Assembly (NCBI GenBank): GCA_041661385.1 | Contig: JBAZUP010000001.1 | Location: 7,382-71,381, forward strand | Length of the DNA stretch: 64,000 bases | Origin: Patescibacteria group bacterium | GTDB taxonomy: Bacteria; Patescibacteriota; Patescibacteriia; Magasanikbacterales; GWA2-37-8 | Direction: 5' to 3' | In this document: positions 22,725 to 63,809 of the stretch, piece after piece | How the letters are laid out: the number at the start of each line of letters is the position of its first letter | Numbering within the stretch: position 1 is the stretch's first letter | Program-made: the position numbers and the translations under genes | The notes under the pieces: generated by a model | Seen by the model: the letters and a program-made list of their open reading frames with translations, nothing else | What the model was told of the DNA's origin: nothing | The model's database searches: none

Positions 22725-22954
22725 TTTATTTATTCAGGTATCCTCTCCCTCCCTGCAACAAAAAGATTTGTTACAGAGAGGGGAGGGAATACGTTATAAA
22801 CCCGAATCAGTTATAAATGTCGAGAGGTGAATAGTCACCTTGGCTGGTTCATTAGTAGTGGATATCGAAGGTCGCAAGGTTTTCGAGTCCGCTCCGCCCT
22901 AAATCGCGATTCCGTCCGGAAAAGCGGTTTGGAGTGATAATATTTATATTTATT

Positions 22955-30182: not shown

Positions 30183-30196
30183 TTAACCAATTTTTT

Positions 30197-31150: not shown

Positions 31151-31156
31151 TTTTTT

Positions 31157-32929: not shown

Positions 32930-32931
32930 AT

Positions 32932-34870: not shown

Positions 34871-34891
34871 GGATATTCATTATATATTCAT

Positions 34892-35818
34892 ATGAAAAAA
34901 TTAATAGAAAATAAATTGGACTATAAAAAAGGTGCTATTCCAAAGGCGGAGTACATTGATATTATGTATCAAAATCACGCCGTCTTATTTGAGTATGCGG
35001 ATTTTATCAAGGATACTGATATCGAAAAAATAGAAATTTCCAATGGAGAAGTAATAATGGTAACCAAAGACTCCGGTATTAAAATTCTTTGCGCGAAAGG
35101 GGATAAAAGAATTGCCCCAATTGAAATATTGAATTTTGACCATTATGAAAAAAGCGAGCTTGATTTTACCCTGAAACTAATTGATAAAAAAAGCACCGTT
35201 TTTGATATCGGTGCGAATTATGGATGGTATTCATTTAATATCGCTAAATCATTTCCAGATTGTAAAATATATGCGTTTGAGCCAATACCCAGGACCTATT
35301 CATATTTGAAAACCAACATTGAATTAAATAAATTTTCAAATATAAATATAAATAATTTCGGTTTTTCCGACGTGGAGAAGGAAATTCCATTTTATTATTA
35401 CCCCGAAGGGTCGGCAAATGCTTCTGCAGCGAATTTGACGAATACGGATTCAGTGGTAAAAATAAATTGTCCGGTAATAATGTTGGATAATTTTGTCGCG
35501 AAGAACAATGTCGGATTAGATTTTATAAAATGCGATATTGAGGGGGCCGAGCTGTTAGCTTTTAAGGGGGGATTGAAATCTATCGCTAAATATAAACCGG
35601 TTATTTTTACCGAGATGCTTAGAAAATGGTCGGAAAAATTTAACTATCATCCGAATGAAATTATTAAATTATTGACAGACATCGGTTATGGGTGTTTTGT
35701 GATCGACGGTGATTATTTGAAACCATTTTACAAAATGGACGAGCAAACCATAGAAACAAATTTTTTCTTTTTGCATTTAGACCATCATAAGAAAAAAATA
35801 AATATGTTTCTTAAATAA
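34892..35818 (+). CDS. FkbM-family methyltransferase
   Basis: Signature FDIGANYGWYS. Confidence 0.8.
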   Translation: MKKLIENKLDYKKGAIPKAEYIDIMYQNHAVLFEYADFIKDTDIEKIEISNGEVIMVTKDSGIKILCAKGDKRIAPIEILNFDHYEKSELDFTLKLIDKKSTVFDIGANYGWYSFNIAKSFPDCKIYAFEPIPRTYSYLKTNIELNKFSNININNFGFSDVEKEIPFYYYPEGSANASAANLTNTDSVVKINCPVIMLDNFVAKNNVGLDFIKCDIEGAELLAFKGGLKSIAKYKPVIFTEMLRKWSEKFNYHPNEIIKLLTDIGYGCFVIDGDYLKPFYKMDEQTIETNFFFLHLDHHKKKINMFLK

Positions 35819-37923: not shown

Positions 37924-38042
37924 TTGATTTTACGCATAAATTAGCTAAAAAGTCAGGTTTAACCTTGATTTTTTTGCTATTTTAGGGTATTATTATTGGT
38001 CTTTTGGCCACTCTCGGCCGAAAGCAAACCAGGAGAGAATCC

Positions 38043-38627
38043 GTGAATTCCGAATCGCTGAACCAGCAGGTGTGGGTCGCCGTGACCAGACTCACCGCCC
38101 TTTTCAAGGGCGATCCAAACGGCGAGGAAGCTGTGAAGAATGCTTTGGCTCAGTTGCTCCGACTGGTGGATCCCTCGAAGCCCTACGGCACGGTGCTGTT
38201 TGACAGTCTCTCCAGGCTCACTTGGAGCATCGCCTTCGAGGGCGTTGCTCTCCGGTTGAATCCGAAGACCAAGAAGCCCGAGGTCTTCCTCAGGAAGCGT
38301 GCCGACGATGACACGGCCTATCCTGGGGAGTGGCATGCCCCCGGTTCGGCCTTCCGTCCCCGGGAGAAGCCAAACCTCGTCGCGAGGCGTCTCTCTCGTG
38401 AGTTCGGGTCCGAGATCATGGACTTCAAGCTGGTGGGGCAGTACTTCTCCAACGAGCAGAGAGGCGACTTCTTGTCGCTCATCTACCTCGTGAAGTTCGA
38501 CGGCGAGCCCCGCGTCGACAACCGGCACATCTGGTGTCCGGTCGACAAGCTGCCGGAGAATACGGTCAACATTCACCGGGATCACCTCATCCCGGCTGCG
38601 GTCGCTGCATATCGCTCGTCTCACTAG
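38043..38627 (+). CDS. Nudix hydrolase resembling GDP-mannose mannosyl hydrolase (Gmm/NudD/WcaH), encoded in GC-rich island 2
   Basis: ~60% GC with GC3 periodicity on the + strand. AGGAGA SD 6 nt before GTG 38043; the track's TTG is at 38004. Modified Nudix box GEWHAPGSAFRPREKPNLVARRLSREFG aligns position-by-position with the Gmm box [29 protein letters not shown]. Confidence 0.5.
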   Translation: MNSESLNQQVWVAVTRLTALFKGDPNGEEAVKNALAQLLRLVDPSKPYGTVLFDSLSRLTWSIAFEGVALRLNPKTKKPEVFLRKRADDDTAYPGEWHAPGSAFRPREKPNLVARRLSREFGSEIMDFKLVGQYFSNEQRGDFLSLIYLVKFDGEPRVDNRHIWCPVDKLPENTVNIHRDHLIPAAVAAYRSSH

Positions 38628-40089: not shown

Positions 40090-41613
40090 TTGTATATGTT
40101 ACAGGTTAATAAATTTTACATAATATATTCATTAAACTGGCTGACGTTGGCGGTTATTTCTGTTTTTCAATATCCAATGTTATTTAGTAAATCCTGTTTT
40201 TTTCAAAAGAATTGGTTATTTTGCGCTGAAAATGTTACAGGCAGTAGCAAGTTTATCGATATTTTTATAATCTCGATATTTTTTATAAATTTATTTTTAA
40301 GCGGTATATTTTGTTGGAAGGTTTTTAAGAAAGAATATATTATTAAAAATAATATAAAATATTTAATAATTGGCTTGTCTTTGCTGTTGCCGATTTTTAT
40401 ATTTCCTTTCGGATCTGGTGATATGACCCACTATTTTAGCTCGGGTAAAGCAGCATCAGGGGGGATAAATTTATATTCCAGCCAGTGGAATTGGGAAAAG
40501 GATTATAACAATTCGCAAGTAGTTGAAATTTTGGCCGGGTATTCATACGGGCCAATTGTTTTGGATATATTAAATATATTTTATAAATTAAGTAATAATA
40601 AAATATATACATTCATATTGTTTTGGAAAATATTTATGGTCGGTGTAGTTGCGCTTTGCGGGTATTTAATAAAATATATAATAAAAATGATTGTCCCAAG
40701 CGCAAGCTTAAATAATTTTTATATTTTTTGGTTCACCCAACCAATTTTTTTATTTGAATGTTTGGTCGATGGTCATTTTGATATTTTGTGGCTTGTATTT
40801 CTTTTGTTAGCTATTATTTTTGCTCACCATAATAAATGGTGGTTAGTTTTTCCGCTTTTGGCAATAGGGGTTTGGATTAAATTTATACCAATTTTAGTTG
40901 CTCCCTGGTTTTTATTGTGGTGGTGGCAAAAAACAAACCGACTAAATTGGAAAAGCAACACAGTGAATTTGTTTGTTGGTTCAATTTTGACGATTTTATT
41001 AACAATCGGTGTTTGGTATAAATACTGGGTAGGATTTAGTGTTTTTAATTTTATTATATTGCAATCTAAGTGGGCTATTTCAAGTATATTTTCAGTAGTT
41101 TATTATAGTTTCCTGCCATTCTTCAAAAATATTTTTGGTACCAATTACCATTGGTATTTAACTCGGTTTGCCCACGCAGTTGTACTTGTTGCGTTTATAT
41201 ATTTATTAGTTCCTTTAATAAAAAATATTTTTAAAATATTTTTAAAAAAACAAACTTTTTCAACTTCACAATATATCGTTTCAATTTTTATAAGTTTATT
41301 TTCATATTTAGTAATCTGGCAAAAATCTATTTGGCCTTGGTATTTTGTATGGATTTTGCCGCTTGGTTTAATTGTTTATTTTATCAGTAGAAATTTATAT
41401 TTAGAAAAATTATTAATTTGGCTTGGAACGGCACCCCTAATTTCCTACATCGTTTGGTTTATAAATTGGCAATTAATTCATACAGACGCTTTTGGTGAAT
41501 ATTGGTATTTCTGTTTTACCGTTTTTTTTGTAACTGGGTATCCATTGTATAATTTTATTAAATGGCGTAAGCAAGGGTATTCAGATGTTTTAGATAATGT
41601 TAATAATATATGA
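40090..41613 (+). CDS. polytopic membrane protein, putative GT-C glycosyltransferase or Wzy-like polymerase
   Basis: 507 aa, >12 hydrophobic segments, Trp/Tyr-rich loops. No soluble domain. Confidence 0.4.
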
Positions 41614-48463: not shown

Positions 48464-49801
48464 ATGATTGATAAAATTAGCGTTGCTTCCCTCGCCAGCG
48501 ATATGGGTATAGGGGGAGTCGCGAGAGAAATAGTTACAATAAACAAGAATCTGAATAAGGAATTCTTTAATCATTTTGTAATTTCAATGGGACCAAGAGA
48601 CGATGTCCGGTCGAAATATATTGATGAAGATAAAATTTTTTTTATTTCTAATCCCAAAGAAATAAGCCAAATATTGGAAGAAAATAAGATTAATGTTTTG
48701 TATGCGCACAGACATGGCAGAAACGAGGCAATCTACGACGCAATTGCCAAGGAAATTAGCGATAATGTAGCGCTTTTGGAAATGAATACCTTTAGTGTAT
48801 TGGACAAAGGATTTTTTGGCCAGCGATGTGAAAAACATGTTTTCGTTAGTCGGACTAATTTGTTAAAATATTGCGTCCAAAACAATATAAATTTTGATTT
48901 TAAAAAACTCAAGACGGTTTTTGGGTTGGTTGATTGTAATCGTTGGTTAGAAAATGTGCCTACAGAAACAGAGGTAAAAGAGTATAAAGAGAAACTGGGC
49001 CTGGAAGGAAATTTTGTGGTGGGTAGGGCGGCTAGACCGGTAATGGGAAAATGGGACGATGAGATGTTGGTAATGTGGAAAAGGCTTAGCAAGATGAACA
49101 ACAAAATTAAATTTTTAATTTATGGGGTTCCAGAGGAGCGAAAGCAATTGCTAATGGCTGCTGGCAAGGCCGAAAATTTGATAATGCTTGAACCAACATC
49201 TTCGGATAAAGAACTTAGACTTTTTTATTCTGCAATCGATGTCTTCGCTCATGATAGTAGGCTTGGGGAATGCGCCTGTGCAACAATTGCGGAGGCGATG
49301 CTTTTTAAAAAGCCGGTTGTAGTCAAATCTACTCCATTTCCTAGATTTACGTTGGGAAGAAGTCATACAAATGATAATGGTCAAATAGAGCAGATTAAAA
49401 ACGGAGAAAATGGCTATGTGGTTGTCGGTGGAGTTGCCATGGCCGAAGCGATTAACTATTTATATAACCACCAAGAAGAAGCCATACAGATGGGGGAAAA
49501 AAATAATAGAGAAGTTTTAGATAAATATAATGCCAAAATAGGCATAAAAACCTTTGAAAAAATATTTATTGATAGTGTTTTAGATAAAAAAATTGACGTA
49601 GCGTCTAATATTTTCGCCTATTACAATTCCAATAATTTTTTTCCGGACGAACACAGTACGAGAGACTGGTTTAAGGAATATTATAGGCGGCTTGAAGATA
49701 TCTTCGGTAAGGAGTATTCTAGTTCTGTCTCGGAAAAATGTTTGTTGTATTATTTGAAATATAAGAGAAAATTTGAAACATTGCTAAAAAAAGTACTATG
49801 A
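48464..49801 (+). CDS. putative glycosyltransferase (GT4-like GT-B fold)
   Basis: C-terminal region ATIAEAMLFKKPVVVKSTPFP resembles the GT4 nucleotide-sugar binding motif. 445 aa. Confidence 0.45.
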   Translation: MIDKISVASLASDMGIGGVAREIVTINKNLNKEFFNHFVISMGPRDDVRSKYIDEDKIFFISNPKEISQILEENKINVLYAHRHGRNEAIYDAIAKEISDNVALLEMNTFSVLDKGFFGQRCEKHVFVSRTNLLKYCVQNNINFDFKKLKTVFGLVDCNRWLENVPTETEVKEYKEKLGLEGNFVVGRAARPVMGKWDDEMLVMWKRLSKMNNKIKFLIYGVPEERKQLLMAAGKAENLIMLEPTSSDKELRLFYSAIDVFAHDSRLGECACATIAEAMLFKKPVVVKSTPFPRFTLGRSHTNDNGQIEQIKNGENGYVVVGGVAMAEAINYLYNHQEEAIQMGEKNNREVLDKYNAKIGIKTFEKIFIDSVLDKKIDVASNIFAYYNSNNFFPDEHSTRDWFKEYYRRLEDIFGKEYSSSVSEKCLLYYLKYKRKFETLLKKVL

Positions 49802-50517
49802 AAGCGATGATTTTGGCTGCGGGCGAGGGGGTCCGACTTCGCCCCCTTACAAACAATATTCCTAAAGTAATGGTCAAAATTGATGGTAAACCTCTTTTGG
49901 AACACAATGTGAATTTAGTCCGTAGTTATGGGGTGCGGGAGATAATTACCAATGTTCATTACAAGCCAGAAATTATAAGTAATTATTTTCAAGACGGAGA
50001 CAAGTTTGGCGTATCTATTTTCTATTCTAAAGAAAAAGAACTCCTGGGCAGTGCCGGCGGAATAAAAAAGGTTGCCAACAAATTAAATAAAACGTTTTTT
50101 GTTTTGTATGGTGACAACTTAAGCAACTGCAACCTAAAAGATCTTCTCACAACTCACAAGAAGAATAAAACTATTTGTACCCTAGTAATTTTTGATAAGA
50201 TTAAGAATAAAAACACTGGTAAAGGTGGAGGTAGAATTTTGTTAAATAAGGATAAAACAGTTAGACAATTTATTGAGAATGGAGAAGAAATCAGTAATTT
50301 TTGCAATGCGGGAATCTATGTGCTTGAACCGGAAATATTTAAGTATATTCCTAATGGAAAAAAATTTGATTTTGGTAATGATGTTTTCCCTTTGCTTCTG
50401 AAGCGCAATATTAAAATAGGTACCTACAAATTAGGTAAAAAAGGGTATCTTTATGCGTGTGATACTATGAAGTACTACCGACAAACACAAGATTTTTTTA
50501 AACATAATGTATTATAG
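49798..50517 (+). CDS. sugar-1-phosphate nucleotidyl(guanylyl)transferase
   Basis: MILAAGEGVRLRPLTNNIPKVMV NTP-transferase motif. Paralog of 55356-56078. Confidence 0.8.
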   Translation: MKAMILAAGEGVRLRPLTNNIPKVMVKIDGKPLLEHNVNLVRSYGVREIITNVHYKPEIISNYFQDGDKFGVSIFYSKEKELLGSAGGIKKVANKLNKTFFVLYGDNLSNCNLKDLLTTHKKNKTICTLVIFDKIKNKNTGKGGGRILLNKDKTVRQFIENGEEISNFCNAGIYVLEPEIFKYIPNGKKFDFGNDVFPLLLKRNIKIGTYKLGKKGYLYACDTMKYYRQTQDFFKHNVL

Positions 50518-50591: not shown

Positions 50592-51584
50592 ATGATTTTA
50601 ACCAGAACGCCACTGAGAATTCCTCTCGGCGGAGGGGGGACCGACCTTCCGACTTTTTATCAACAGCACGGTGGATTTGTGTTTAGTGCAGCTATTGATA
50701 AGTATATGTACATAAGCATTGTTCGGCCAATTTTGGATTCGTTAGTTCGTATCAAATATTCGCGCACCGAGGTTGTAGAAAATGTGACACAGGTGAAGAA
50801 TCAGTTGGCACAAGCAGCTTTGGAATATTATGGAATCAAAGATAAAATTGAAATTACATCAACGGCCGATGTGCCGGCGGGGACGGGAATGGGTTCGTCT
50901 GGGTCATATTTGGTTGGGCTTTTAAAAGGACTCCAAGCATTAACGCGCCAGAGTTCCAGTGTTCAAGAGTTGGCGGAATTGGCTTGCCATATTGAAATTG
51001 ATTTATTGCGCAAACCCGTCGGTAAACAGGATCAATATTTAGCTGCGTATGGTGGTTTTACGGTACTGAATATAGATAAAAATGGGTTAGTGCAGGTCTC
51101 GGAGGCAGCCGTATCTCATGAAATAGCCGAAGAATTGCAGAGTAAATTATTATTATTTTTTACCGGCATAACTCGTGATGCTATGGTTATTCTGAGCGAG
51201 CAAGGTGTTGCGGTAGAAAAAAAAGAAAGCGATGTTACAAAATCTTTGTTGCGGATTAAGGAAATTGGTCTGGAAATAAAAAGCTCCATCGAAGCTGGAA
51301 ATTTGGATAATTTTGGCAGATTAATGGATGAGCATTGGAAGGTGAAAAAAACCATGTCCACAAAAATGTCTGATCCAAACATGGATAGGCTTTATGAATT
51401 AGCCAAAGAGCGAGGAGCTTTGGGTGGTAAAATTATGGGGGCGGGCGGCGGCGGATTTTTTGTATTTTATTGTCCAGGAGAAAAAGAGAAAAAAGGTGTA
51501 CGTGATATTATGAAGTTAAATGGTCTGGTGGAAATGCCGTTTAGTTTTGAAAAAGAGGGGGCAAAAACGCTGGTCGGTTTTTAA
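50592..51584 (+). CDS. hddA: GHMP-family sugar kinase (D-glycero-alpha-D-manno-heptose 7-phosphate kinase HddA-like)
   Basis: PLRIPLGGGGTDLPTFY N-terminus and GMGSSGS ATP motif. Neighbourhood with gmhA/gmhB/hddC. Confidence 0.7.
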   Translation: MILTRTPLRIPLGGGGTDLPTFYQQHGGFVFSAAIDKYMYISIVRPILDSLVRIKYSRTEVVENVTQVKNQLAQAALEYYGIKDKIEITSTADVPAGTGMGSSGSYLVGLLKGLQALTRQSSSVQELAELACHIEIDLLRKPVGKQDQYLAAYGGFTVLNIDKNGLVQVSEAAVSHEIAEELQSKLLLFFTGITRDAMVILSEQGVAVEKKESDVTKSLLRIKEIGLEIKSSIEAGNLDNFGRLMDEHWKVKKTMSTKMSDPNMDRLYELAKERGALGGKIMGAGGGGFFVFYCPGEKEKKGVRDIMKLNGLVEMPFSFEKEGAKTLVGF

Positions 51585-51607: not shown

Positions 51608-52357
51608 ATGAAAGAGAATAAACCTTATTCTGCGGAATACGCAAACAACATGGAGCTTCGCCGGTATTTCTCTGACCTTGCCTTGAGTCATTTAAGTTTA
51701 ATTAGATTACATAGCGAAAGCGGGCATTTGCCTAGCCTGAAAAATTTAACGCCGGAACAGATAGTGGCAAATATTGAATCAAGCGGACAAGAAGATTGGT
51801 CAAATGTGGTACGGCATTGCTTGGCTGAAGCTGGCGCGGCAGACGCCTTGGCAAATTTATTAGGTTTGTCTGAAGAAGAAAAAGAAGATTTGGTTCAGGC
51901 GGCTATTTTGCATGATTTTGATAAAAGAATTGAAATAGAAACTCTAAGTGGTACTCAGGGAAAATATACGCAGGCCGCGGCAGAGTTTAAATTGGTAAGC
52001 AAGGAAACTTTGCAAAAGAAAGGAATAAAACCGGAAATTATTAATATTATTAACGTGATTGGCGATGTTGATGGTATTCAAAACGAAAATACAAATTTGT
52101 CGCAGAAAATCATGTTTTACATTGACAATATTACCGATGAGACTAATTTGGTAGGTGTAAAAGTTAAGCGTGGCCGCCTAGTTAAACGCTATCCAAAATT
52201 TGCTGAAGAAAATGAATATATGGATAAATGGGTGAGCAGCACCGAAGCGGTGCAGAAAGAGCTTGCCGAGAAGATAGGTTTACCCAACCCAGAAGAATTA
52301 CCCGATTTTATTTTAACAAAAATCAAGCAGTTGGCCGCAGAACAATCTCATAAATAA
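51608..52357 (+). CDS. HD-domain protein (putative metal-dependent phosphohydrolase)
   Basis: H...HD metal motif (VVRHCLAEAG ... AAILHDFDK). Confidence 0.4.
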   Translation: MKENKPYSAEYANNMELRRYFSDLALSHLSLIRLHSESGHLPSLKNLTPEQIVANIESSGQEDWSNVVRHCLAEAGAADALANLLGLSEEEKEDLVQAAILHDFDKRIEIETLSGTQGKYTQAAAEFKLVSKETLQKKGIKPEIINIINVIGDVDGIQNENTNLSQKIMFYIDNITDETNLVGVKVKRGRLVKRYPKFAEENEYMDKWVSSTEAVQKELAEKIGLPNPEELPDFILTKIKQLAAEQSHK

Positions 52358-52372
52358 GCTTGATAATAAAAG

Positions 52373-52399
52373 CGCGAGATAGGGAGGACCTATCTCGCG
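52373..52399. terminator. bidirectional terminator hairpin between convergent genes
   Basis: cgcgagatagg-gagga-cctatctcgcg, an 11-bp stem. Confidence 0.6.
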
Positions 52400-52407
52400 T
52401 ACTACAT

Positions 52408-53943
52408 TTATTTTGCAAGGCGTTGATCGCCAATCTCTCTTTCTTTACGTCGCCGTTTGTAGTCTTCGGTATTCACCGTTTCCCACGCCCAATCGCGCAG
52501 TATGACCACTTCCTCCGGCGGCACTATTGTATTTTTCATTACAGCATTTTTCCAATTCATCGTGTCCGGATCGAAATCCGGCGATAAATGGCCTCCTTTT
52601 ATTGCAATGCTGTAAAGTTTGCTCCCAGGGAACGGGATGGGAATGAAGAATGTTACGTGTCTCGCGCCAGCGTCGATGAGTTTTTTTGCGAGCTCAACAG
52701 TCTCATTCATTTCAGCTTTCGTTTCATCGGGGAACCCAATCATCATATTGACGGGGCAGTTGATCCCGATTTTCACGGCTTCGCGCACTAGTTCAAGCAC
52801 GTTGAGCTTGTCATGACGAAGTTTGGACGAGGCGTATTTGTCCAGAATGCGTTGATTTCCAGATTCAACCGGAAAGACGATTTCATTAAATCCGGCCGCA
52901 CTCAGGATTTCCAAATATTCCACGTCTGGCTTTAGTCGCCCAGTTGAGGTCGGGATACCAAAGTGGACGAGGTTTACGCCGTTTATACCGCTAATCTTCA
53001 GTCCGAGACCCGCGAGGCGATGAAAAAGGTCTTTGATTCGAGCTTTTTTGGCGAGGAGACTATCATCCTCAATGTAGAGGTGGGTTACTCCAAGCGCCAA
53101 CAGTATCTTTAGTTCCTCCATAACGCGGTCGATGGATTTGAAACGCAACGAACCAGTACCACCAGTGAGGGAGTCCGTCTCACGCTCTTCACTGATATGA
53201 CAGTAAGCGCAATGAAATGGACAGCCACGGGAGGTCATGATTGAGGCGTAACGCTCTCGTTGATCGGTCATGGGGACGCTGCTGTGGGGGCTGTTGATCT
53301 CGTCATACTTGGCAAATGGCAGCAGATCCCATGCAGGAATCGGCAGCTCATCAAGATTACTCGAGATCAAATTCGGCGTCACCGGACGAGTTATGACGGA
53401 TCCCTTGTGAAGATACTTAATTCCGTCAACTTTGTCGAACGAGGAATTTTGCTGCCAGGCGCGGACGAGATTAACGATAATTTTTTCACCCTCGGTAAGG
53501 ACTACAACGTCCACCAAGCGGCTTGCAAAGAATCGTTCTGACAGCGCGCGGGCATTAACACCACCTGCGATAACCAAGGTATTTGGGTTTACTTCCTTAG
53601 CAATTTTGGCCACCTCCAGAGCCATATTGGTCTGGGGCGTAAAGTTGTTGCTGATGCCCACTATATCGTAGCTACCTTTGGTAAAATATTCCCGCAAGCG
53701 ATCCGCGGTCATACCAATACGCGTAAGGCCGTTTGGCAGAAGAACACGGTTGTGGAATGTATTACTAAGGTAGTCTTCATTTGTTCCAACTGAAGCGTCC
53801 AACAAATCAACTTCAAATCCTGCTCGACGAAGGGCGCCGGCAAGGTACAATGGGCCGAGCGAGCCATCCGGTCGTGGCATTTCAATTGCCATTAGTTGAT
53901 TGGGTGGATAGACCAAAAGAATCTTCGGTTGAAGCTTTGACAT
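52408..53943 (-). CDS. B12-binding (class B) radical SAM enzyme
   Basis: N-terminal cobalamin-binding Rossmann-like domain, then radical SAM core with CPFHCAYCH (CxxxCxxC). Confidence 0.85.
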   Translation of the reverse strand: MSKLQPKILLVYPPNQLMAIEMPRPDGSLGPLYLAGALRRAGFEVDLLDASVGTNEDYLSNTFHNRVLLPNGLTRIGMTADRLREYFTKGSYDIVGISNNFTPQTNMALEVAKIAKEVNPNTLVIAGGVNARALSERFFASRLVDVVVLTEGEKIIVNLVRAWQQNSSFDKVDGIKYLHKGSVITRPVTPNLISSNLDELPIPAWDLLPFAKYDEINSPHSSVPMTDQRERYASIMTSRGCPFHCAYCHISEERETDSLTGGTGSLRFKSIDRVMEELKILLALGVTHLYIEDDSLLAKKARIKDLFHRLAGLGLKISGINGVNLVHFGIPTSTGRLKPDVEYLEILSAAGFNEIVFPVESGNQRILDKYASSKLRHDKLNVLELVREAVKIGINCPVNMMIGFPDETKAEMNETVELAKKLIDAGARHVTFFIPIPFPGSKLYSIAIKGGHLSPDFDPDTMNWKNAVMKNTIVPPEEVVILRDWAWETVNTEDYKRRRKEREIGDQRLAK

Positions 53944-54104
53944 GGCTATCTCCTTGTTGTGAAGGTTGTTTCGATTGTATGTTGGTTTTTAGTAAAAGTC
54001 AAGGGTAATACCCCGCCTGAATTTAAATTCCAAATTGTCAAATTTAGGGTCAGTTTTTAGCTTATTTATCAGAAAAGACAATTTATTGGTACAAGTATTT
54101 TTTA

Positions 54105-54133
54105 TTGACTTTTTTGACTAAAAAAGTTATATT
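54105..54133 (+). promoter_or_regulatory. sigma70 promoter for the gmhA operon (TTGACT-17 nt-TATATT)
   Basis: TTGACT at 54105-54110, TATATT at 54128-54133, ~40 nt upstream of the gmhA ATG. Confidence 0.5.
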
Positions 54134-54173: not shown

Positions 54174-54779
54174 ATGACAAGTATAGATTATATATCAACT
54201 TATCTATCTGGGGTTAGCGAAATTGCAAAGAAAATTGATAAGGATGCGATCGAAAGGGCCGTCAGTTTGATTTTTGAGACCAGAAAACGCAGTGGCAGGT
54301 TATTTATTCTCGGAGTCGGTGGAAGCGCCGGAAATGCGGGTCATGCGGTTAATGATTTCAGAAAATTAGTTGGTATTGAAAGCTATGCCCCAACGGACAA
54401 TGTTTCGGAGTTAACAGCCAGAACAAATGATGATGGTTGGGATACGGTTTTTGTAAACTGGTTAAGAGGCAGTAGGTTGAAATCGGAGGATTGTATTTTG
54501 GTATTGTCGGTAGGTGGTGGAAATGAGGAGAAAAATATTAGTGGTAATATTGTTAAAGCATTGAAATTCGCTAAAGAAGTGGGTTGCAGTGTTTTGGGTA
54601 TTGTTGGTCGTGACGGAGGTTATACTGCTAAAGTTGCGAATGTTACGGTTCTCATTCCGATTTATAGCCCTGAAACCGTTACTCCTCTCTCAGAGGCATA
54701 TCAGGCGGTGGTGTGGCATCTGCTTGTTTCAAGTCCAGCCTTGAAGGTTCAAGAAGCAAAGTGGGAGTCAGTGAAATAG
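54174..54779 (+). CDS. gmhA: phosphoheptose isomerase (SIS domain)
   Basis: LGVGGSAGNAGHAVNDF SIS motif. ~200 aa. ATG at 54174; the track's start at 54105 is a TTG inside the promoter. Confidence 0.85.
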   Translation: MTSIDYISTYLSGVSEIAKKIDKDAIERAVSLIFETRKRSGRLFILGVGGSAGNAGHAVNDFRKLVGIESYAPTDNVSELTARTNDDGWDTVFVNWLRGSRLKSEDCILVLSVGGGNEEKNISGNIVKALKFAKEVGCSVLGIVGRDGGYTAKVANVTVLIPIYSPETVTPLSEAYQAVVWHLLVSSPALKVQEAKWESVK

Positions 54780-54781
54780 TT

Positions 54782-55351
54782 ATGAGTAATAAGGCAATAT
54801 TTTTAGATAGAGATGGCACAATTATAAAGCATGTCGAGCTAATGCACTCCGTTGACGATTTGCGTTTATTGCCTGGTTCCGCAAGTGCAATCAATACGTT
54901 TAATCGATTGGGGTATTTGGTGATTATCGTTACTAACCAGCCAGTAGTGGCGCGAGGTATAGTCGAACCAAAGGAGATTGATAAAATACACGAAGTCTTA
55001 ATAGAAAGATTGCACGGTAGGGGGGCGCACATTGATCGAGTATATTTTTGTCCGCACCACCCAGAAGCGACTGTTTCGGAATATCGATTGCGGTGTCTGT
55101 GTCGTAAACCTGAACCCGGTATGATTTTGGAAGGTTTAAAAAGTCTAAATATAAATCCTGATCAAAGTTTCATGATTGGTGACGCCTTGATTGATGTGGT
55201 CTCTGGGAAAAAAGCCGGTTTAAAAACAATTTTAGTAAAATCCGGTCCTGGACATGCGCGTTTGGACGAAAAATTTAATGATATAAAATCCGATTTTACC
55301 GTTAATACTTTGCTTCAAGCGGCGAAAATAGTAATGGCTAATACTATTTAA
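54782..55351 (+). CDS. gmhB: D,D-heptose 1,7-bisphosphate phosphatase (HAD)
   Basis: AIFLDRDGTII HAD motif I. Cys-rich zinc site (CPHHPEA...CLCRKP). 189 aa. Confidence 0.8.
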   Translation: MSNKAIFLDRDGTIIKHVELMHSVDDLRLLPGSASAINTFNRLGYLVIIVTNQPVVARGIVEPKEIDKIHEVLIERLHGRGAHIDRVYFCPHHPEATVSEYRLRCLCRKPEPGMILEGLKSLNINPDQSFMIGDALIDVVSGKKAGLKTILVKSGPGHARLDEKFNDIKSDFTVNTLLQAAKIVMANTI

Positions 55352-55355: not shown

Positions 55356-56078
55356 ATGGCGAGCATAAAACAAGCCGTTATATTATGCGCCGGCCTAGGA
55401 ACTCGTTTGCGACCGCTTACTGACACCCTGCCAAAACCCATGATACCATTTTTGGATAAACCGCTTTTGGAATGGAATATCGAAAAGTTTAAGAAGCACG
55501 GAGTAAGAGAATTTTTTATAAATCTATTTTACTTGCCGGATGTTATCCGGGATTATTTTGGAGATGGCGCAAAGTGGGGTGTTAAAATAAATTATTTTCA
55601 AGAGAAAAAAATCTTGGGGACTGCTGGGGGGGTAAAAAACTTCGCTAGTAAGTTGAATCAAAATTTTTTTTTAATTTACGGTGATATACTAAGCTTGGTG
55701 GATTATTCCAAAATGGCCGGCCGATTTTCTGAATACTCAGACGCCATCGGTATGCAGATAATGCAGAGAACAGATAATTATGTTGATGCTGATGTGGCCG
55801 AACTGGCAAAAGATGGCAGCTTTACGAAAATACATCCAAAACCGCACAGCGAGAAGTATTCAAATGCGTATCGCATGAAAGGAGTGTTTATTTTGAGTAA
55901 AGAAATTCTAGATTATATTCCAGTAGATACTTTTTACGAAATTGGAAAGCAACTTTTGCCCAATGTGGTAAGTGCTGGAAAAAGATTTTATAGTTACGAG
56001 TGTGCAGATTATACTAAGGGTATTGATACGATGGATAAGTACCGGGAAGTGGAAGAGTACTTAAGGAAAAGTATTTAA
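55356..56078 (+). CDS. sugar-1-phosphate nucleotidyltransferase (heptose/mannose-1-P guanylyltransferase-like, HddC candidate)
   Basis: AVILCAGLGTRLRPLTDTLPKPMI. Confidence 0.8.
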   Translation: MASIKQAVILCAGLGTRLRPLTDTLPKPMIPFLDKPLLEWNIEKFKKHGVREFFINLFYLPDVIRDYFGDGAKWGVKINYFQEKKILGTAGGVKNFASKLNQNFFLIYGDILSLVDYSKMAGRFSEYSDAIGMQIMQRTDNYVDADVAELAKDGSFTKIHPKPHSEKYSNAYRMKGVFILSKEILDYIPVDTFYEIGKQLLPNVVSAGKRFYSYECADYTKGIDTMDKYREVEEYLRKSI

Positions 56079-56088: not shown

Positions 56089-57054
56089 ATGAAGTTGTCA
56101 AAAATAAACAAACCAAGAATTCTTTTGGTCGGAGCCGGAAAATTTGGCTGGAAACACCTGCTTGTTTGGCAAAAGCTCGCTAGTCGTGGTTTGGTTACTT
56201 TTGTTGGTGTGGTTGTGAGGGATCCGGTTATAAGAAAGAAAGTCGGCGCTCTTAAAGTGCCGGTATTCTCGAAATTAACTGATGAAATTTTAAAGACTGT
56301 TGACGCTGTTGATATTGTGACTCCAGCGGGCACCCATTTTGATTTGGCAAAAGAATGTTTGATTCATACCAATGTTTTTTTGGAGAAACCGATGACTTTA
56401 TCAGCTCAGGAAGCCCGGGAACTCAACCAGATTGCGGCAGAAAAAAACCGTTATCTGGCACTCGGCCATATATATCGTTTCAATGGTGCTATTCAAAAAT
56501 TAAAAAAAATAATGGCCGCGAGTCCCACCAAACCATTTTTTATAGAATCTACCTTCGTCGATATACCGTCAAAGTTGCCTAACGATTGCGGCATCCTATT
56601 TTCCGATTTACACGGTTTTGATATTTTAGATTATCTGTTGGAATCGTCGCCAGAGTTAATTTACGCAATCGGCAGTCGTCGAAGTGCAACTGAGCGCTTT
56701 GAAAACAACGCAACTGTTTTACTTCGTTATCCAAATCATGTTGATGCCGTGGTAAAACTCAGTTGGACCGCAGTACCCAAAACTCGTTCAATGACGATTC
56801 TGTTTCCCGATAAGAGAATTTTTGTTGATCTTGCGGATCAAATCATTACAGTTACCACGTTGCGAGGTATAAAGAAGATTGGCTGCTTTAAAACCATGCC
56901 ACTTGAGGCCGAACTCGCAAATTTTGTGGAAGTTTTAAAAAATAAGCCGGTAGTATATGCAGATGGAACGGTAGGACTCAGGCTCGTCCATCTCACCAAG
57001 GAGATAGAACGTTCATATCGGGAAAACCGGCCAATTTCATTTCATTCTTTGTAA
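56089..57054 (+). CDS. Gfo/Idh/MocA-family NAD(P) oxidoreductase
   Basis: N-terminal Rossmann ILLVGAGKFGWKHL and EKP motif (FLEKPM). Confidence 0.7.
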   Translation: MKLSKINKPRILLVGAGKFGWKHLLVWQKLASRGLVTFVGVVVRDPVIRKKVGALKVPVFSKLTDEILKTVDAVDIVTPAGTHFDLAKECLIHTNVFLEKPMTLSAQEARELNQIAAEKNRYLALGHIYRFNGAIQKLKKIMAASPTKPFFIESTFVDIPSKLPNDCGILFSDLHGFDILDYLLESSPELIYAIGSRRSATERFENNATVLLRYPNHVDAVVKLSWTAVPKTRSMTILFPDKRIFVDLADQIITVTTLRGIKKIGCFKTMPLEAELANFVEVLKNKPVVYADGTVGLRLVHLTKEIERSYRENRPISFHSL

Positions 57055-57071: not shown

Positions 57072-58169
57072 ATGCAGCGACCACGAGTAGCCATTATAGG
57101 TGCTGGAATTTTCGGGATTAGTTGCGCTCTAGAGCTTGGAGAAACTTGCCAAGTTACCGTATATGAGCAAAACAGTGAAATTATGCGCGGAGGAACTTAT
57201 GGTAACCAGTATCGGCATCACTTTGGCTATCACTATCCGCGTAGCCCCGAAACCGTACGGCAATGCCAAGAAGCCGAAAAAGATTTTGTTGATCTCTGGG
57301 GCGAAGCGATTATTGGTGACTTTCCCGCCTACTATGCTATTGCTACTGAAGGTTCTAAAATAACGGCAGAGCAGTTCTTTGCTTTTTGTGAATCTCAAAA
57401 ACTTCCGTATGAAATAAGCTATCCGAGTCGGGATTTTTTGGATCGTAGTCATGTGGAGACTTGTGTTAAAACAAAAGAGCCAGTATATAATTATTCCCGT
57501 TTGTGTAAACTGGCTAGTGATAAAATCTTGTCTAATCCGCATATTCAGGTTAAAACGGGGAATACAGTAGTCGGTTGTGAGTTTAGTAAAGTGGATGATA
57601 CAAAGATTGTATTTGTAAAAACGGCGCAAGGAGATACATATCATGACTCGTTTGATTTTGTGATTAATGCAACCTACGCGAATCATAATCAGTTTTGCAA
57701 CTGGCTTGGTTTCGCCGTGCCTCCGATTGAGTTTAGGTTGAAGGAGCTTGTTGTTGTTGAGCTTCCTAAGCCAAAATTTCTTGCGGTAACGGTTATGGAC
57801 GGACCATTTGTGACGCTTGTTCCTATGGGGAAAGAGGGGAGGTATACCTTAGGAGACGTAGCGCGTTCTCTTCATGATGTAAAAATTTCTAATGATGGCC
57901 CGCCTTGGTCAAAAGCGGATATTGCCGGGCGAGTTTCCCGATTTCCTGAAATGCAAGAGAATGATCCGTTTTTTATCCCTGCCATCAAAGACGCTAAGTA
58001 TATCCAATCGATTTATTCAATTTTACCTATTCGCCCTAATTCCGACGCCACAGATGAGCGTATCACCTCGGTTACCAATCATGGACGAGGATGTTGGTCG
58101 GTGTTTGAAGGAAAAATTATTACATGCGTTACCGCCGCAAAAACAATTAAGCGAAATCTGCAAATGTAG
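57072..58169 (+). CDS. FAD-dependent oxidoreductase
   Basis: RVAIIGAGIFGISCALEL dinucleotide-binding motif. 365 aa. Confidence 0.65.
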   Translation: MQRPRVAIIGAGIFGISCALELGETCQVTVYEQNSEIMRGGTYGNQYRHHFGYHYPRSPETVRQCQEAEKDFVDLWGEAIIGDFPAYYAIATEGSKITAEQFFAFCESQKLPYEISYPSRDFLDRSHVETCVKTKEPVYNYSRLCKLASDKILSNPHIQVKTGNTVVGCEFSKVDDTKIVFVKTAQGDTYHDSFDFVINATYANHNQFCNWLGFAVPPIEFRLKELVVVELPKPKFLAVTVMDGPFVTLVPMGKEGRYTLGDVARSLHDVKISNDGPPWSKADIAGRVSRFPEMQENDPFFIPAIKDAKYIQSIYSILPIRPNSDATDERITSVTNHGRGCWSVFEGKIITCVTAAKTIKRNLQM

Positions 58170-58321: not shown

Positions 58322-59044
58322 ATGAAAATATTTATCGACAGCGCAGAGGTAAAAGAGGTTGAGAAGTATCTCAGCTGGGGAATCTGTGATGGTGTAACTA
58401 CCAATCCAAGTATTTGTCTGAAATCTGGCGTAAAAGGTGGTGAAGAGGGTATGAAGAAAAGGGCAATCGAGATTGCAAAATTAATTTCACCAAATCCCTT
58501 GAGCGTTGAGGTGACTACCGATAATGAAGCAGAAATACTTGTTCAAGCCAGAAAATATAATGCCTGGGCTGAAAATATTTCCGTGAAGGTGACCATAACT
58601 GATAAAAATGGTGTTGGACTACTTCCTGTGATTTATAAGCTGGTCAGCGAGGGTGTTTCGGTAAATGTAACTGCGATGATGACTTTTAACCAGGCGATTT
58701 TGGCAGCCAAAGCAATTAACGCCGGACTCGCGGTTGCAAAAAATAAAAAGACCCACTTCATCAGTATTTTTGCCGGACGTGTTTCCGAGGAACATGGTGT
58801 AGAACAAGCTCAAAAAGTCCTTAAAGAAGTCAGAGAATGGTTAGATTTTCATAATTATAAAAATATTGAAATAATTGTCGGTTCGGTGCGCACTCCGGAG
58901 AACGTAGAATTATGGAGTAAGAGCGGTGCACACATTCTTACAATACCGCCGGAGGTTATCTCAAAATGTTTGATGTCGGCTCGTACTAAAGAGACTGTCG
59001 TGCAATTTTTAGGCGATGCCAGCAAAGCCCTGCAACAGTTATAA
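58322..59044 (+). CDS. tal: transaldolase / fructose-6-phosphate aldolase family
   Basis: MKIFIDSAEVKEV...GVTTNPS N-terminus and active-site lysine region. 240 aa. Confidence 0.85.
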   Translation: MKIFIDSAEVKEVEKYLSWGICDGVTTNPSICLKSGVKGGEEGMKKRAIEIAKLISPNPLSVEVTTDNEAEILVQARKYNAWAENISVKVTITDKNGVGLLPVIYKLVSEGVSVNVTAMMTFNQAILAAKAINAGLAVAKNKKTHFISIFAGRVSEEHGVEQAQKVLKEVREWLDFHNYKNIEIIVGSVRTPENVELWSKSGAHILTIPPEVISKCLMSARTKETVVQFLGDASKALQQL

Positions 59045-63116: not shown

Positions 63117-63809
63117 ATGCTTCATGTTTCGATTATCATCCCAACTTATAATGAAGCCGACAACTTGGAGCCGCTGCTGCAAGAAATTTTTTCGTCAGTT
63201 GATAAAAATCGATTCGATGTCGAGGTTATTATAGTGGATGATAATTCACCCGATGGTACCGGTAGGATTGCCGACCAGCTTTCGGTTCGTTTTCCTCTTC
63301 AGATTATACATCGTTCCAGTAAACTCGGTCTCGGTAGCGCTGTGCGTGAAGGGTTTGCAAAGTCAAAAAGAGATGTTGTTGGAGTAATGGATGCCGATTT
63401 AAGCCATGATCCAAATATAGTTAATAAACTTCTCGGCGAATTGGAAAATGGCGCTGACCTGGTGATCGGGAGTCGTTTTGAAGAGGGAAGCGTGGTAGAA
63501 AAATGGAAATGGTGGCGGAAGGTTATTTCTAAAACGGGTGTTTTTATTACTAAATTTATCACTGGTGTAAATGATCCGCTCAGTGGATATTTTTTTCTGA
63601 GAAAAAAAGTCATTGACGGCGTTGATCTGACAGCGACTGGTTATAAAATTTTGTTGGAAATATTAGTTAAAGGAAATCACGGACCAGTGAAGGAGGTTCC
63701 GTTCCGCTTTAGAATTCGACTTCATAGTACAAGTAAGCTTAGCGCGGTCGAATACTGGCTATTTTTTCAGCAGATTATTGCTTATGGTTGGTATAAGTTA
63801 TTTAGATAG
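63117..63809 (+). CDS. GT2 dolichol/polyprenol-phosphate mannose(hexose) synthase-like
   Basis: VSIIIPTYNEADNLEPLLQEI...VIIVDDNSPDGTG and DADLSH. Soluble, 230 aa. Confidence 0.8.
   Translation: MLHVSIIIPTYNEADNLEPLLQEIFSSVDKNRFDVEVIIVDDNSPDGTGRIADQLSVRFPLQIIHRSSKLGLGSAVREGFAKSKRDVVGVMDADLSHDPNIVNKLLGELENGADLVIGSRFEEGSVVEKWKWWRKVISKTGVFITKFITGVNDPLSGYFFLRKKVIDGVDLTATGYKILLEILVKGNHGPVKEVPFRFRIRLHSTSKLSAVEYWLFFQQIIAYGWYKLFR

Follow-up and report, generated by a model that had tools for sequence, protein, structure and literature searches.

The gene analysed here, which lies in a 64-kb stretch of Patescibacteria DNA (hereafter, the window), encodes a class-B-type radical SAM (rSAM) enzyme whose most likely role is a so far uncharacterised modification of a heptose on the cell surface. 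A sugar-tailoring reading of the enzyme is well supported, and we consider it quite likely that the sugar it tailors is the heptose of a cassette conserved among CPR bacteria and DPANN archaea. The chemistry is predicted with more reserve: C-methylation is a tentative assignment, and the combined reading of the gene as the radical, predictedly C-methylating, tailoring enzyme of this CPR/DPANN heptose cassette is equally provisional.

Gene architecture and setting in the window

The rSAM reading frame opens with an ATG that is preceded, 8 nt upstream, by a Shine-Dalgarno sequence (AAGGAG), and an entry identical to its product is already on record from a Patescibacteria MAG, where it is encoded on a contig of 778,751 bp. 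The preliminary description had seen in it a B12-binding domain joined to a CPFHCAYC radical SAM core, and both parts were borne out by Pfam (PF02310 and PF04055, each above its cutoff; Table 1) and by the motif itself, whose three cysteines (C241, C245, and C248) are invariant among 35 relatives, as are the R239-G240 pair that precedes the motif and the histidine (H249) directly after it. The AlphaFold model (pLDDT 89.4, pTM 0.90) matched known rSAM barrels as well as the B12-rSAM enzymes that carry an N-terminal Rossmann domain, and the protein has a class-I architecture in which a Rossmann-type B12-binding domain lies N-terminal to the barrel, as in class B. The earlier assignment to class B holds at this level of architecture, where the predicted fold and the structure-defined cobalamin motifs agree.

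All other real genes between positions 27253 and 63809 lie on the plus strand, such that the rSAM gene is, as had been described, the lone minus-strand gene of a glycan locus of about 37 kb. The only competing minus-strand open reading frame (37977-38624) was rejected as a real gene because it overlaps a plus-strand NUDIX gene whose frame carries the coding signature (GC3 of 0.78 > GC1 > GC2). Antisense placement within the glycan locus, true as it is for this window, proved to be lineage-specific: the usual position of the rSAM gene in relatives is inside the operon and co-directional with it, and we therefore discarded its orientation as a functional feature. Downstream of the gene, the hairpin thought to be common to the rSAM and HD-domain genes is present and sits in the 50-bp gap between their convergent stop codons, with a T-rich run after it on the minus strand. 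Upstream, the divergent promoter region proposed toward gmhA contains promoter-like sites in both directions, each of them a consensus match only. The more probable start of gmhA is ATG 54174, not TTG 54105; the divergent gap then measures 230 bp instead of 161 bp.

The convergent HD-domain gene recalls the pairing of OxsB, the best PDB match to our family profile, with the HD-domain phosphohydrolase OxsA, and the tail-to-tail arrangement with a common hairpin would fit an OxsB/OxsA-like pair that works on a nucleotide and not on a glycan sugar. This reading is already disfavoured by comparative data, and we hold it to be extremely improbable: the HD gene is found at 0 of 54 related loci and is missing even beside orthologues that are 84% and 77% identical, the HD match of its product falls under the Pfam cutoff, and the two genes, being convergent, are not co-transcribed. 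The HD-domain protein was thus rejected as a functional partner, and OxsA is left with no conserved counterpart among the rSAM loci. PDB sequence searches with the DAO, HD, and NUDIX proteins returned no matches.

Table 1. Features of the rSAM gene, its product, and its neighbours, with positions in the window; fractions out of 37 are numbers of orthologue loci in which the partner occurs.
Feature	Position	Strand	Basis
Class-B-type rSAM enzyme gene, 511 aa	52408..53943	-	B12-binding and radical SAM domains
B12-binding (Rossmann) domain codons, residues 29-159	53467..53859	-	Pfam PF02310, 58.6 bits, cutoff 32.1
Radical SAM core codons, residues 237-419	52687..53235	-	Pfam PF04055, 66.6 bits, cutoff 29.5
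[4Fe-4S] motif codons, C241-PFH-C245-AY-C248	53200..53223	-	sequence motif
Hairpin, perfect 11-bp stem, 5-nt loop	52373..52399	.	candidate bidirectional terminator
Promoter-like TTGACT-17-TACAAT, upstream of rSAM gene	54002..53974	-	consensus match only, 10/12
Promoter-like TTGACT-17-TATATT, upstream of gmhA	54105..54133	+	consensus match only, 10/12
Acetolactate-synthase-like TPP enzyme	31157-32929		
Sugar-1-phosphate nucleotidyltransferase (HddC-like), conserved partner	49798..50517	+	HddC model 108.8 bits, equivalog cutoff 300; 30/37 loci
GHMP kinase (HddA-like heptose-7-phosphate 1-kinase), conserved partner	50592..51584	+	HddA model 171.6 bits, equivalog cutoff 600; 32/37 loci
Weak HD-domain protein, convergent with rSAM gene	51608..52357	+	Pfam HD 19.9 bits, cutoff 22
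SIS-domain isomerase (GmhA-like), conserved partner	54174..54779	+	GmhA model 54.8 bits, equivalog cutoff 209; 30/37 loci
HAD-IIIA phosphatase (GmhB-like), conserved partner	54761..55351	+	GmhB model 153.5 bits, equivalog cutoff 178; 26/37 loci
Second sugar-1-phosphate nucleotidyltransferase	55356..56078	+	profile matches
GFO/IDH/MocA dehydrogenase, nucleotide-sugar 3-dehydrogenase-like, frequent partner	56089..57054	+	19/37 loci
DAO-family FAD oxidoreductase, frequent partner	57072..58169	+	20/37 loci
Small transaldolase / fructose-6-phosphate aldolase family protein, conserved partner	58322..59044	+	31/37 loci

Linkage of the rSAM gene to heptose activation

To evaluate genomic context, we used a set of 37 species-level loci from CPR bacteria and DPANN archaea with an rSAM protein at least 49% identical, and counted neighbours within 10 kb. 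Rather than sitting in unrelated surroundings, the orthologues in both groups were found within heptose-activation cassettes, which upholds the link to sugar biosynthesis that had been drawn from the window. Kinase, transaldolase, isomerase, nucleotidyltransferase, and phosphatase each recurred as partners (Table 1), all five of these heptose-activation families occurred together at 24 of the 37 loci, and a GFO/IDH/MocA or DAO gene was present at 26. The orthologue operons are laid out as transaldolase, SIS isomerase, anomeric kinase (GHMP type, with some lineages having PfkB type instead), HAD phosphatase, and nucleotidyltransferase, and they also hold the GFO/IDH/MocA dehydrogenase, the DAO flavoprotein, and glycosyltransferases, with the rSAM gene as a rule directly next to the gene for the nucleotidyltransferase. 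One relative (L015) has a compact operon with all genes co-directional and shares with another (L005) a fusion of GFO and DAO; a Pacearchaeota locus (L038) carries a GFO-DAO-rSAM trio with the DAO gene directly upstream of the rSAM gene; and one orthologue carries, as a fusion, a beta-helix of sugar-N-acetyltransferase-like type. At a further locus (L018), a PfkB kinase and a GT9 heptosyltransferase stand in place of the GHMP route, which ties the rSAM gene to heptose rather than to any single pathway. Among more distant homologues (16 loci), partner counts were 0-4 and the heptose linkage was gone.

Within the window, the heptose genes possess the expected Pfam domains and have heptose enzymes as their best NCBIfam matches, at scores below the equivalog cutoffs (Table 1), such that the heptose itself is a sugar that we infer. 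The cassette has four domain families in common with the GDP-D-glycero-alpha-D-manno-heptose pathway (GmhA, HddA, GmhB, and HddC), and it differs from the textbook version of that pathway in holding a transaldolase, a GFO/IDH/MocA dehydrogenase, a DAO flavoprotein, and the rSAM enzyme. The transaldolase would presumably supply the ketose phosphate, and its presence in such a gene set recalls the lincosamide octose route. A search of a literature library found no paper joining a B12-rSAM enzyme to heptose.

Co-localisation with heptose genes is distinct from identification of a substrate. The rSAM enzyme might act on another glycan component (such as the polyprenyl carrier, some other sugar, or a protein or lipid acceptor), in which case its gene and the heptose genes would lie together because both serve one glycoconjugate. 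All of the loci are indeed large and of mixed glycan content, rich in genes for glycosyltransferases, methyltransferases, and PMT/ArnT-like GT-C enzymes; lipids or tetrapyrroles are the substrates of relatives in the same broad group (HpnJ, ladderane, and BchE); and a SAR11-type clade, about 40% identical, has its gene in glycan loci that lack heptose genes. We nevertheless judge such a target quite improbable, as the linkage tracks the heptose genes through two kinase solutions (GHMP and PfkB/GT9) and through both bacteria and archaea while the glycosyltransferases vary, and as the gene that typically adjoins the rSAM gene is that of the nucleotidyltransferase.

Family placement and the cobalamin question

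An NCBIfam search with the rSAM protein gave 29 weak matches, none at its curated cutoff, and PDB sequence and profile searches for solved structures gave remote matches alone (≤46 bits), with less than 21% identity to any of them. The nearest named model was Sden_1168 (NF038361; 149.5 bits, cutoff 575), which was matched across both domains (residues 5-453) and was also the best model for 86 of the 87 nearest out-group clusters. Sden_1168 is annotated as a P-methyltransferase from a phosphonate context, whereas no phosphonate genes occur here, and the missed cutoff makes our protein a non-member. The second and third nearest named models, again far below their cutoffs, were BchE (TIGR02026; 109.9 bits against 481) and HpnJ (TIGR03471; 101.7 bits against 577.6), the latter proposed to rearrange a sugar ring on a lipid; hopanoid and bacteriochlorophyll genes are missing here, and neither pathway exists in these organisms. 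This sequence neighbourhood (Sden_1168/HpnJ/BchE/ApyD) includes methylases and non-methylating enzymes alike, and according to a 2026 review no structural feature parts the two among class-B enzymes (PMC12931638).

We then assessed the cobalamin-binding motifs as defined from crystal structures (PMC9204698), counting their conservation in 35 sequences, and found every one of them in the rSAM protein. The Gly-Gly motif, which on beta-4 forms the pocket for the DMB tail (PMC9204698), is G127-G128 (35/35), and the Gly-Glu motif at the start of alpha-5 is G152-E153, with G152 kept in 26 of 35 (otherwise S or A) and E153 in 31 (otherwise D). The B12-domain loop reads G96-I-S-N-N100-F101-T-P-Q-T, and the downstream Cbl motif of the beta3-alpha3 loop (G-x-S-x-[L/N/R/Y]) appears in it as G96-I-S98-N-N100, its family form being [G/A]96-I-x-S99-N100-F101. 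R239 is the equivalent of TokK R204, the Cbl-tail Arg, and is present in all 35 sequences, as is E292-D293-D294 at the 'GGE' position; at the position of TokK W215, two residues after the last Cys, where a stacking hydrophobic residue would be expected in a radical (sp3) C-methyltransferase of the GenK/Fom3/TokK kind, stands the hydrophobic I250 (29/35).

The predicted fold is equally close to AprD4 (PDB 6FD2), a cobalamin-free sugar dehydratase, and AprD4, in which no cobalamin is bound, shows together with ArsL that architecture alone is not proof of a corrinoid (PMC12931638). It is conceivable that the protein is likewise a cobalamin-independent radical SAM 1,2-diol dehydratase working on the heptose, with the GFO/IDH/MocA dehydrogenase, alone or with the DAO protein, reducing the keto intermediate to a deoxy-heptose. 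We find this decidedly improbable, however, as sequence likeness to AprD4 is confined to the barrel both in the NCBIfam model (NF033070; 49 bits against 500, residues 196-471 alone) and in the family-profile match to the PDB (residues 231-469); profile matches to the Cbl-dependent OxsB, TokK, CysS, and TsrM reach into the N-terminal domain. That domain passes the PF02310 cutoff, and its kept GG, GE, and downstream Cbl motifs, along with the Cbl-tail Arg, would make little sense in a protein that binds no corrinoid. Overall, we lean toward an enzyme that uses a corrinoid.

Weighing on the other side, the host lineages (CPR/DPANN) are not known as cobalamin makers, neither a cobalamin riboswitch nor another RNA element was found near the rSAM gene or in the 64-kb window, and no B12 transport or biosynthesis genes were seen within the window, which covers 64 kb of a genome with a 778-kb contig. 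A search of a literature library returned no paper tying Patescibacteria/CPR to cobalamin use.

Predicted chemistry on the heptose and its meaning

In the proposed pathway, the cassette would give rise to a nucleotide-activated heptose, and the rSAM step would probably take place at this NDP-sugar stage, as suggested by the common layout, where the rSAM gene is flanked by the nucleotidyltransferase gene and a GT2 gene. SAM would be reductively cleaved at the [4Fe-4S] cluster, the 5'-deoxyadenosyl radical would take a hydrogen from an unactivated heptose carbon, and the substrate radical would most likely be quenched by a methyl from methylcobalamin, which a second SAM would regenerate, such that a C-methylated heptose would enter the surface glycan. 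Among class-B enzymes, C-methyltransferases far exceed all others in how much they have been studied and how often they are represented, and no SSN group that has a characterised member is without one (PMC12931638). The preliminary description had proposed C-methylation of GenK/Fom3 type, of which C-methylation stands as the likeliest of several chemistries and the GenK/Fom3 label is overstated; the nearest named models turned out to be Sden_1168, BchE, and HpnJ. What is shared with GenK (C6') and GenD1 (C4'') is the class-B methylation of unactivated sp3 sugar carbons, as proposed here, and, in the gentamicin pathway, a pairing with sugar dehydrogenases (PMC5461906); Fom3, which methylates a cytidylylated substrate, is alike by chemical logic (PMC12931638). 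GenK, GenD1, and Fom3 belong to actinomycete secondary metabolism, whereas the present gene belongs to a primary surface-glycan cassette of CPR/DPANN and to a heptose pathway. The structurally characterised B12-rSAM C-methyltransferases MgmA/QCMT and CysS (PDB 9CCB and 9N1B) are 16-19% identical; the former acts on a protein glutamine, the latter on a pantetheine-linked natural-product intermediate.

The FkbM and TylF methyltransferases of the locus, which had been cited in favour of C-methylated or C-branched sugars, do not bear on the matter: FkbM (PF05050) and TylF (PF05711) are O-methyltransferase families and as such silent on C-methylation, and we set them aside as evidence. Should a C-branched sugar be made by this locus, the acetolactate-synthase-like TPP enzyme would be a better candidate for it than either of them.

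Against methylation, an HMMER alignment with OxsB places Asn100 at OxsB Asn186 and so suggests a hydrophilic lower-axial environment, although the register relative to TokK is ambiguous; such an environment is associated with non-radical-methylating enzymes (2026 review, PMC12931638). The enzyme could instead depend on cobalamin without methylating and use radical chemistry to rearrange the skeleton of the heptose, as in a ring contraction or the formation of a carbocycle, with cobalamin serving as electron sink or radical relay and not as methyl donor. We see this as unlikely. It has precedents in HpnJ, where rearrangement of hopanoid-linked glucosamine is proposed (we know of no in vitro reconstitution), and in OxsB, where ring contraction of a deoxyadenosine nucleotide toward oxetanocin A is shown. 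Among PDB entries, OxsB (PDB 5UL2-4) matches the family profile best (45.8 bits, E 2.6e-11), over both domains of a common two-domain core, and its substrate carries a nucleotide, as the NDP-sugar proposed here would. The loop DIVGISNNF aligns with DIIGLSVNF of OxsB (near-identical as DI[IV]G[LI]S.NF) and sets G96-x-S98-x-N100 on G182-x-S184-x-N186, of which N186 holds the lower-axial water and its equivalent N100 is kept in 30 of 35 sequences; both proteins are also acidic at the 'GGE' position (E-D-D here, A-D-E in OxsB), as opposed to D-A-N in TokK. The standing of HpnJ and BchE among the nearest named models points the same way, and non-methylating enzymes fall in the same large group (PMC12931638). 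But OxsB is only about 20% identical with a TM of about 0.6, carries extra N-terminal and helix-bundle domains, and has a CX4CX2C motif where ours is CX3CX2C. The lower-axial argument, moreover, draws on a single structure per class and on a register that moves by one residue with TokK, in which case the residue would be the invariant F101, a hydrophobic lower-face residue typical of methylases, and most characterised class-B enzymes are methylases (PMC12931638). A more specific version, which we regard as rather unlikely, is that the clade is a corrinoid-assisted non-methylase that together with the fused GFO/IDH/MocA-DAO oxidoreductase remodels the skeleton of the nucleotide-heptose, or of a transaldolase-built octose, for example by ring contraction or to a carbocycle.

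CPR bacteria and DPANN archaea live attached to host cells, and to our knowledge almost nothing is known of their surface glycans. The conserved operon described here, in which heptose-activation genes occur with an rSAM gene and often with GFO/IDH/MocA and DAO genes, points to a specific and testable modification of a surface sugar. Orphan class-B enzymes seldom come with a candidate of this kind. If the skeleton-remodelling reading were true, the product would be a surface sugar not known before and typical of CPR and DPANN organisms, and these ultra-small symbionts would need host-scavenged corrinoid for their envelope. More generally, if a corrinoid is truly needed, the enzyme would add a cofactor dependency in organisms that are apparently unable to make one, and this dependency would bear on their dependence on hosts and on their cultivation.

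Gene structure and lineage history

The gene that the preliminary description had read as a B12-binding domain joined to a CPFHCAYC radical SAM core is real and was rightly recognised: the 511-aa ORF (the rSAM gene) starts with ATG, has a Shine-Dalgarno AAGGAG 8 nt upstream, and encodes a protein matching Pfam B12-binding PF02310 at residues 29-159 (58.6 bits, cutoff 32.1) and Radical_SAM PF04055 at residues 237-419 (66.6 bits, cutoff 29.5), with the [4Fe-4S] cluster motif C241-PFH-C245-AY-C248. The public record includes an identical protein on a 778,751-bp contig of a Patescibacteria MAG. Housekeeping genes usual for CPR (e.g. FtsA, FtsZ, NrdR, SHMT) occupy the window's first 27 kb, and from a Wzy_C-like protein onward a glycan locus of ~37 kb carries nucleotide-sugar enzymes, glycosyltransferases, a flippase, and methyl- and acetyltransferases. 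The claim that the rSAM gene is the only minus-strand gene of this locus stood, all other real genes being on the plus strand; a competing minus-strand ORF overlaps a plus-strand NUDIX gene, and it is the NUDIX frame that shows the coding signature (GC3 0.78 > GC1 > GC2). Also present was the hairpin said to be shared with the convergent HD-domain gene, a perfect 11-bp stem with a 5-nt loop in the 50-bp gap between the two stop codons, and the divergent promoter region claimed toward gmhA was seen as promoter-like hexamers facing both ways (consensus matches only). For gmhA, ATG is a more likely start than TTG, at which the longest ORF begins and which falls on the -35 hexamer in a promoter-like site; the public gene call (221 aa) takes a third start, neither of these.

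Positions of the rSAM gene and other features, in the window unless a related locus is named
Feature	Position	Strand	Remark
rSAM gene	52408-53943	-	
HD gene	51608-52357	+	249 aa
Hairpin	52373-52399		
gmhA start, ATG	54174	+	
gmhA start, TTG	54105	+	
GFO/IDH/MocA dehydrogenase gene (GFO)	56089-57054		
FAD oxidoreductase gene (DAO)	57072-58169		
Transaldolase/FSA-family gene	58322-59044		
Glycan locus	27253 to window end		
TPP-enzyme cassette	29397-35818	+	
NUDIX ORF	38004-38627	+	
ORF competing with NUDIX	37977-38624	-	
Large ORF	40090-41613	+	507 aa
Large ORF	22934-26623	+	1229 aa
Large ORF	17739-19505	-	588 aa
Small GT2 gene	63117-63809		
GT-C protein gene	L001 1-160		past window end
GFO-DAO fusion	L005 12272-14281		
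GFO-DAO fusion	L015 12529-14514		
Second B12-rSAM gene	L005/L006 3015-4742		575 aa
Glycan-type region	L061 4423-18282		Pelagibacteraceae single-cell genome

Antisense placement and a terminator shared between the two genes are traits particular to the window's lineage, and the HD gene itself is lineage-specific. A pairing of the rSAM and HD proteins in the manner of OxsB and OxsA, which their adjacency might bring to mind, is highly improbable, a counterpart of the HD gene being found in 0/54 related loci. The HD-gene product has a sub-threshold HD/HDIG match only and no PDB match. The rSAM gene has a GC of 0.487 and a GC3 of 0.518 (z +2.1 against the window's genes), with neighbour means of 0.39 and 0.357; GC3 is raised in the inverted-orientation orthologues of loci L003, L007, L045 and L047 and not in the co-directional ones of L015 and L016. 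Because the GC offset tracks the inverted orientation, these data suggest that in an ancestor of the lineage the gene was inverted or replaced in situ.

Several other genes of the window drew our attention. The NUDIX ORF, just 5' of a DegT aminotransferase in the glycan locus, is a 57-62% GC island in a 39.5% GC window (GC3 z +5.7 against other genes), had zero matches in a PDB sequence search, and seems to have been acquired very recently, as a single gene, from a GC-rich donor. None of the three large ORFs has a Pfam match, and the 507-aa one, flanked by a DegT aminotransferase and a GDP-mannose 4,6-dehydratase within the glycan locus, also has no NCBIfam match. The small GT2 is weakly like polyprenyl-phosphate sugar synthases (AglJ, ArnC, PpgS, Dol-P-hexose transferase) and is followed in the source contig by a PMT/ArnT-like GT-C protein, which together suggest that a lipid-phosphate carrier delivers the sugar to an acceptor outside the cytoplasm.

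Family placement and cobalamin-binding features

No curated family cutoff was reached in the NCBIfam scan of the rSAM protein, which ranked Sden_1168 first (149.5 bits, cutoff 575), then BchE (109.9), HpnJ (101.7) and an archaeal hypothetical family, and a 35-sequence profile gave remote PDB sequence matches to OxsB (45.8 bits), AprD4 (41.8), TokK (36.0), MgmA (35.0), CysS (33.6) and TsrM (23.3). Judged by its sequence, the protein has class B architecture. A word-indexed search returned 887 matches, the best 120 of the 887 all at least 54% identical, and an exhaustive profile search returned 4,046 cluster representatives below 1e-30, only about twenty of which exceeded 400 bits before a drop to <300 bits, so that the orthogroup is well delimited. 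Among the nearest out-group clusters, Sden_1168 was the best model in 86 of 87 (best 3e-125, under cutoff), followed by HpnJ, BchE and ApyD, which places the clade as a divergent branch of a large class-B group that mixes methylases with the known non-methylating enzymes and has no feature separating them (PMC12931638). No measured affinity supports the 'GenK/Fom3-type' label of the preliminary description.

The fold is silent on cobalamin use, since AprD4 has the same fold and binds none (PMC12931638). We scored 35 family members for the base-off cobalamin features defined from the OxsB, TsrM and TokK structures, namely a 'downstream' G-x-S-x-[L/N/R/Y] loop after beta-3, Gly-Gly on beta-4, Gly-Glu at alpha-5, the Arg that immediately precedes the Cys loop, the second residue past the last Cys, and the 'GGE' position (PMC9204698). 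Every one of these motifs was found in the family: the loop as [G28/A7]96-I-x-S99(31)-N100(30)-F101(35)-T102(35)-P-Q104(35)-T105(35) (counts of 35), G127-G128 (35/35), G152 (26/35) with E153 (31/35), R239 (35/35, equivalent to TokK R204), H249 (35/35) with I250 (29/35) at the TokK W215 position, and E292-D293-D294 (35/35). Profile matches to the cobalamin enzymes OxsB, TokK, CysS and TsrM reach the N-terminal domain, whereas that to AprD4 covers the barrel only. The enzyme thus probably binds a corrinoid, and a cobalamin-free, AprD4-like dehydration, for which the GFO protein could serve as reductase, appears doubtful. Within the window, 64 kb of a 778-kb contig, there was no cobalamin riboswitch and no recognisable B12 transport or biosynthesis gene.

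HMMER aligns DIVGISNNF with OxsB DIIGLSVNF, placing N100 at OxsB Asn186, which organises lower-axial water; the TokK register is shifted by one residue and would put the invariant F101 there instead. A hydrophobic lower face goes with radical methylases and a hydrophilic one with OxsB and TsrM (2026 review, PMC12931638). N100 at this position would be at odds with a plain 'methylase' label, depending on an ambiguous alignment register.

A probable heptose cassette shared by bacteria and archaea

Scanning one genome per GTDB species gave 77 loci, mostly from Patescibacteria, with Pacearchaeota and Woesearchaeota (~49-51% identity) and a Pelagibacteraceae clade (~40%). Loci of at least 15 kb were searched with the window's neighbour proteins, a gene being counted when at most 10 kb separated it from the rSAM gene, and we compared 37 loci whose rSAM protein is at least 49% identical with 16 loci of more distant homologues as an internal control. 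This revealed GHMP kinase (HddA-like) in 32/37 close against 2/16 distant loci, transaldolase in 31/37 against 2/16, NTP-transferase (HddC-like) in 30/37 against 4/16, SIS isomerase (GmhA-like) in 30/37 against 1/16, HAD phosphatase (GmhB-like) in 26/37 against 1/16, GFO in 19/37 against 0/16 and DAO in 20/37 against 0/16. Of the 37 close loci, 24 have the complete set of five heptose genes, 28 have four or more, and 26 have GFO or DAO; between two thirds and three quarters of the time, partners share the strand of the rSAM gene. The common form, as in L015, runs NTP-transferase, rSAM, GT2, GFO-DAO fusion (661 aa), HAD, GHMP kinase, SIS and transaldolase, with small gaps or overlaps; in L038, from Pacearchaeota, the consecutive genes are GFO, one unknown, DAO and rSAM.

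One of the few orthologous loci lacking the GHMP kinase, L018, continues after the rSAM gene with a GT9 heptosyltransferase, HAD phosphatase, PfkB kinase and transaldolase. A PfkB-type set of this kind represents the second known route to nucleotide-heptose. L005/L006 have an HldE-like PfkB-cytidylyltransferase protein and GT9 beside a second B12-rSAM gene. The association with both GHMP and PfkB/GT9 loci, in bacteria and archaea, therefore links the enzyme to heptose and not to one pathway, phylum or gene order. The sugar-tailoring idea of the preliminary description withstood the refutation test set for it, an unrelated context in relatives, the context being strongly sugar-related. A substrate other than heptose in the same glycan pathway, which the varied enzymes of the locus would accommodate, is rather unlikely beside this recurrent cassette.

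The second B12-rSAM gene lies directly 3' of GT9 and differs from the orthologue, and heptose loci of such organisms can hold two class-B enzymes. P0091, a 645-aa, 58% identical orthologue on a 2.6 kb metagenomic contig, has an N-terminal ~135-aa left-handed beta-helix of the WlbB/WbpD sugar-N-acetyltransferase type, either a real fusion or an artefact of merged gene calls. The ~40% identical SAR11-type sister clade is without heptose genes, yet its setting is of glycan type; the L061 region holds GT2, a polysaccharide deacetylase, a DegT-like protein, FemAB, a further B12-rSAM gene and E1/E2 of a 2-oxoacid dehydrogenase, and the Pfam B12-binding match of the L061 rSAM copy falls below 1e-4.

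Among the partners, the GFO protein resembles nucleotide-sugar 3-dehydrogenases (best NCBIfam model archaeal UDP-GlcNAc 3-dehydrogenase, 126.5 bits, below cutoff; best PDB sequence match 7BVJ, 64 bits), and DAO drew no sequence match from the PDB and is assigned to no NCBIfam family. GFO and DAO are separate genes in the window and fused in relatives (~660 aa), and because they are often fused we take their steps to be coupled, the pair being an uncharacterised two-step oxidoreductase module. The small transaldolase gene is kept inside the cassette and overlaps the SIS gene in L015; we know of no textbook heptose cluster with a transaldolase. The combination of transaldolase, isomerase, kinase, phosphatase and nucleotidyltransferase recalls the lincosamide octose pathway, by analogy with which the product could be an octose instead of a heptose.

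Proposed chemistry and significance

Architecture, motifs and operon membership of the rSAM gene are shown, as is its conservation across two domains of life. We propose that the transaldolase would supply a ketose phosphate that the cassette turns into a nucleotide-activated heptose, from an unactivated carbon of which the rSAM enzyme's 5'-deoxyadenosyl radical would take a hydrogen; the common order NTP-transferase, rSAM, GT2 suggests action on the nucleotide sugar, prior to transfer. As outcome we tentatively favour methyl transfer from methylcobalamin, because no other class-B enzymes are nearly as well represented or as well studied as the C-methyltransferases and every similarity-network group with a characterised member includes one (PMC12931638), and because GenK and GenD1 C-methylate sugars (PMC5461906). 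Rearrangement with the help of cobalamin, in the manner of OxsB or HpnJ, with which N100 and the HpnJ model matches would agree, is unlikely against this precedent.

FkbM and TylF, which the preliminary description took together with the rSAM enzyme as a hint of C-branched or C-methylated sugars, add no support for C-methylation, both being O-methyltransferase families. A likelier source of C-branched sugars in the locus than either of these is the TPP cassette, comprising an NTP-transferase, a 4,6-dehydratase-like SDR, a 590-aa acetolactate-synthase-like TPP enzyme (458 bits, under the ALS cutoff), two more SDRs and then an FkbM methyltransferase, and resembling YerE-type TPP-dependent two-carbon deoxysugar branching (yersiniose-like).

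The rSAM genes form an uncharacterised, well-delimited clade of class-B type that belongs, in CPR bacteria and DPANN archaea, to a probable heptose cassette. The enzyme is of no new kind, orphan class-B enzymes are numerous, and the finding is moderately interesting overall; unusually for such an orphan, both a plausible substrate and a plausible set of partners can be named. There are also hints that these ultra-small symbionts carry a distinctive surface sugar and may depend on a corrinoid.
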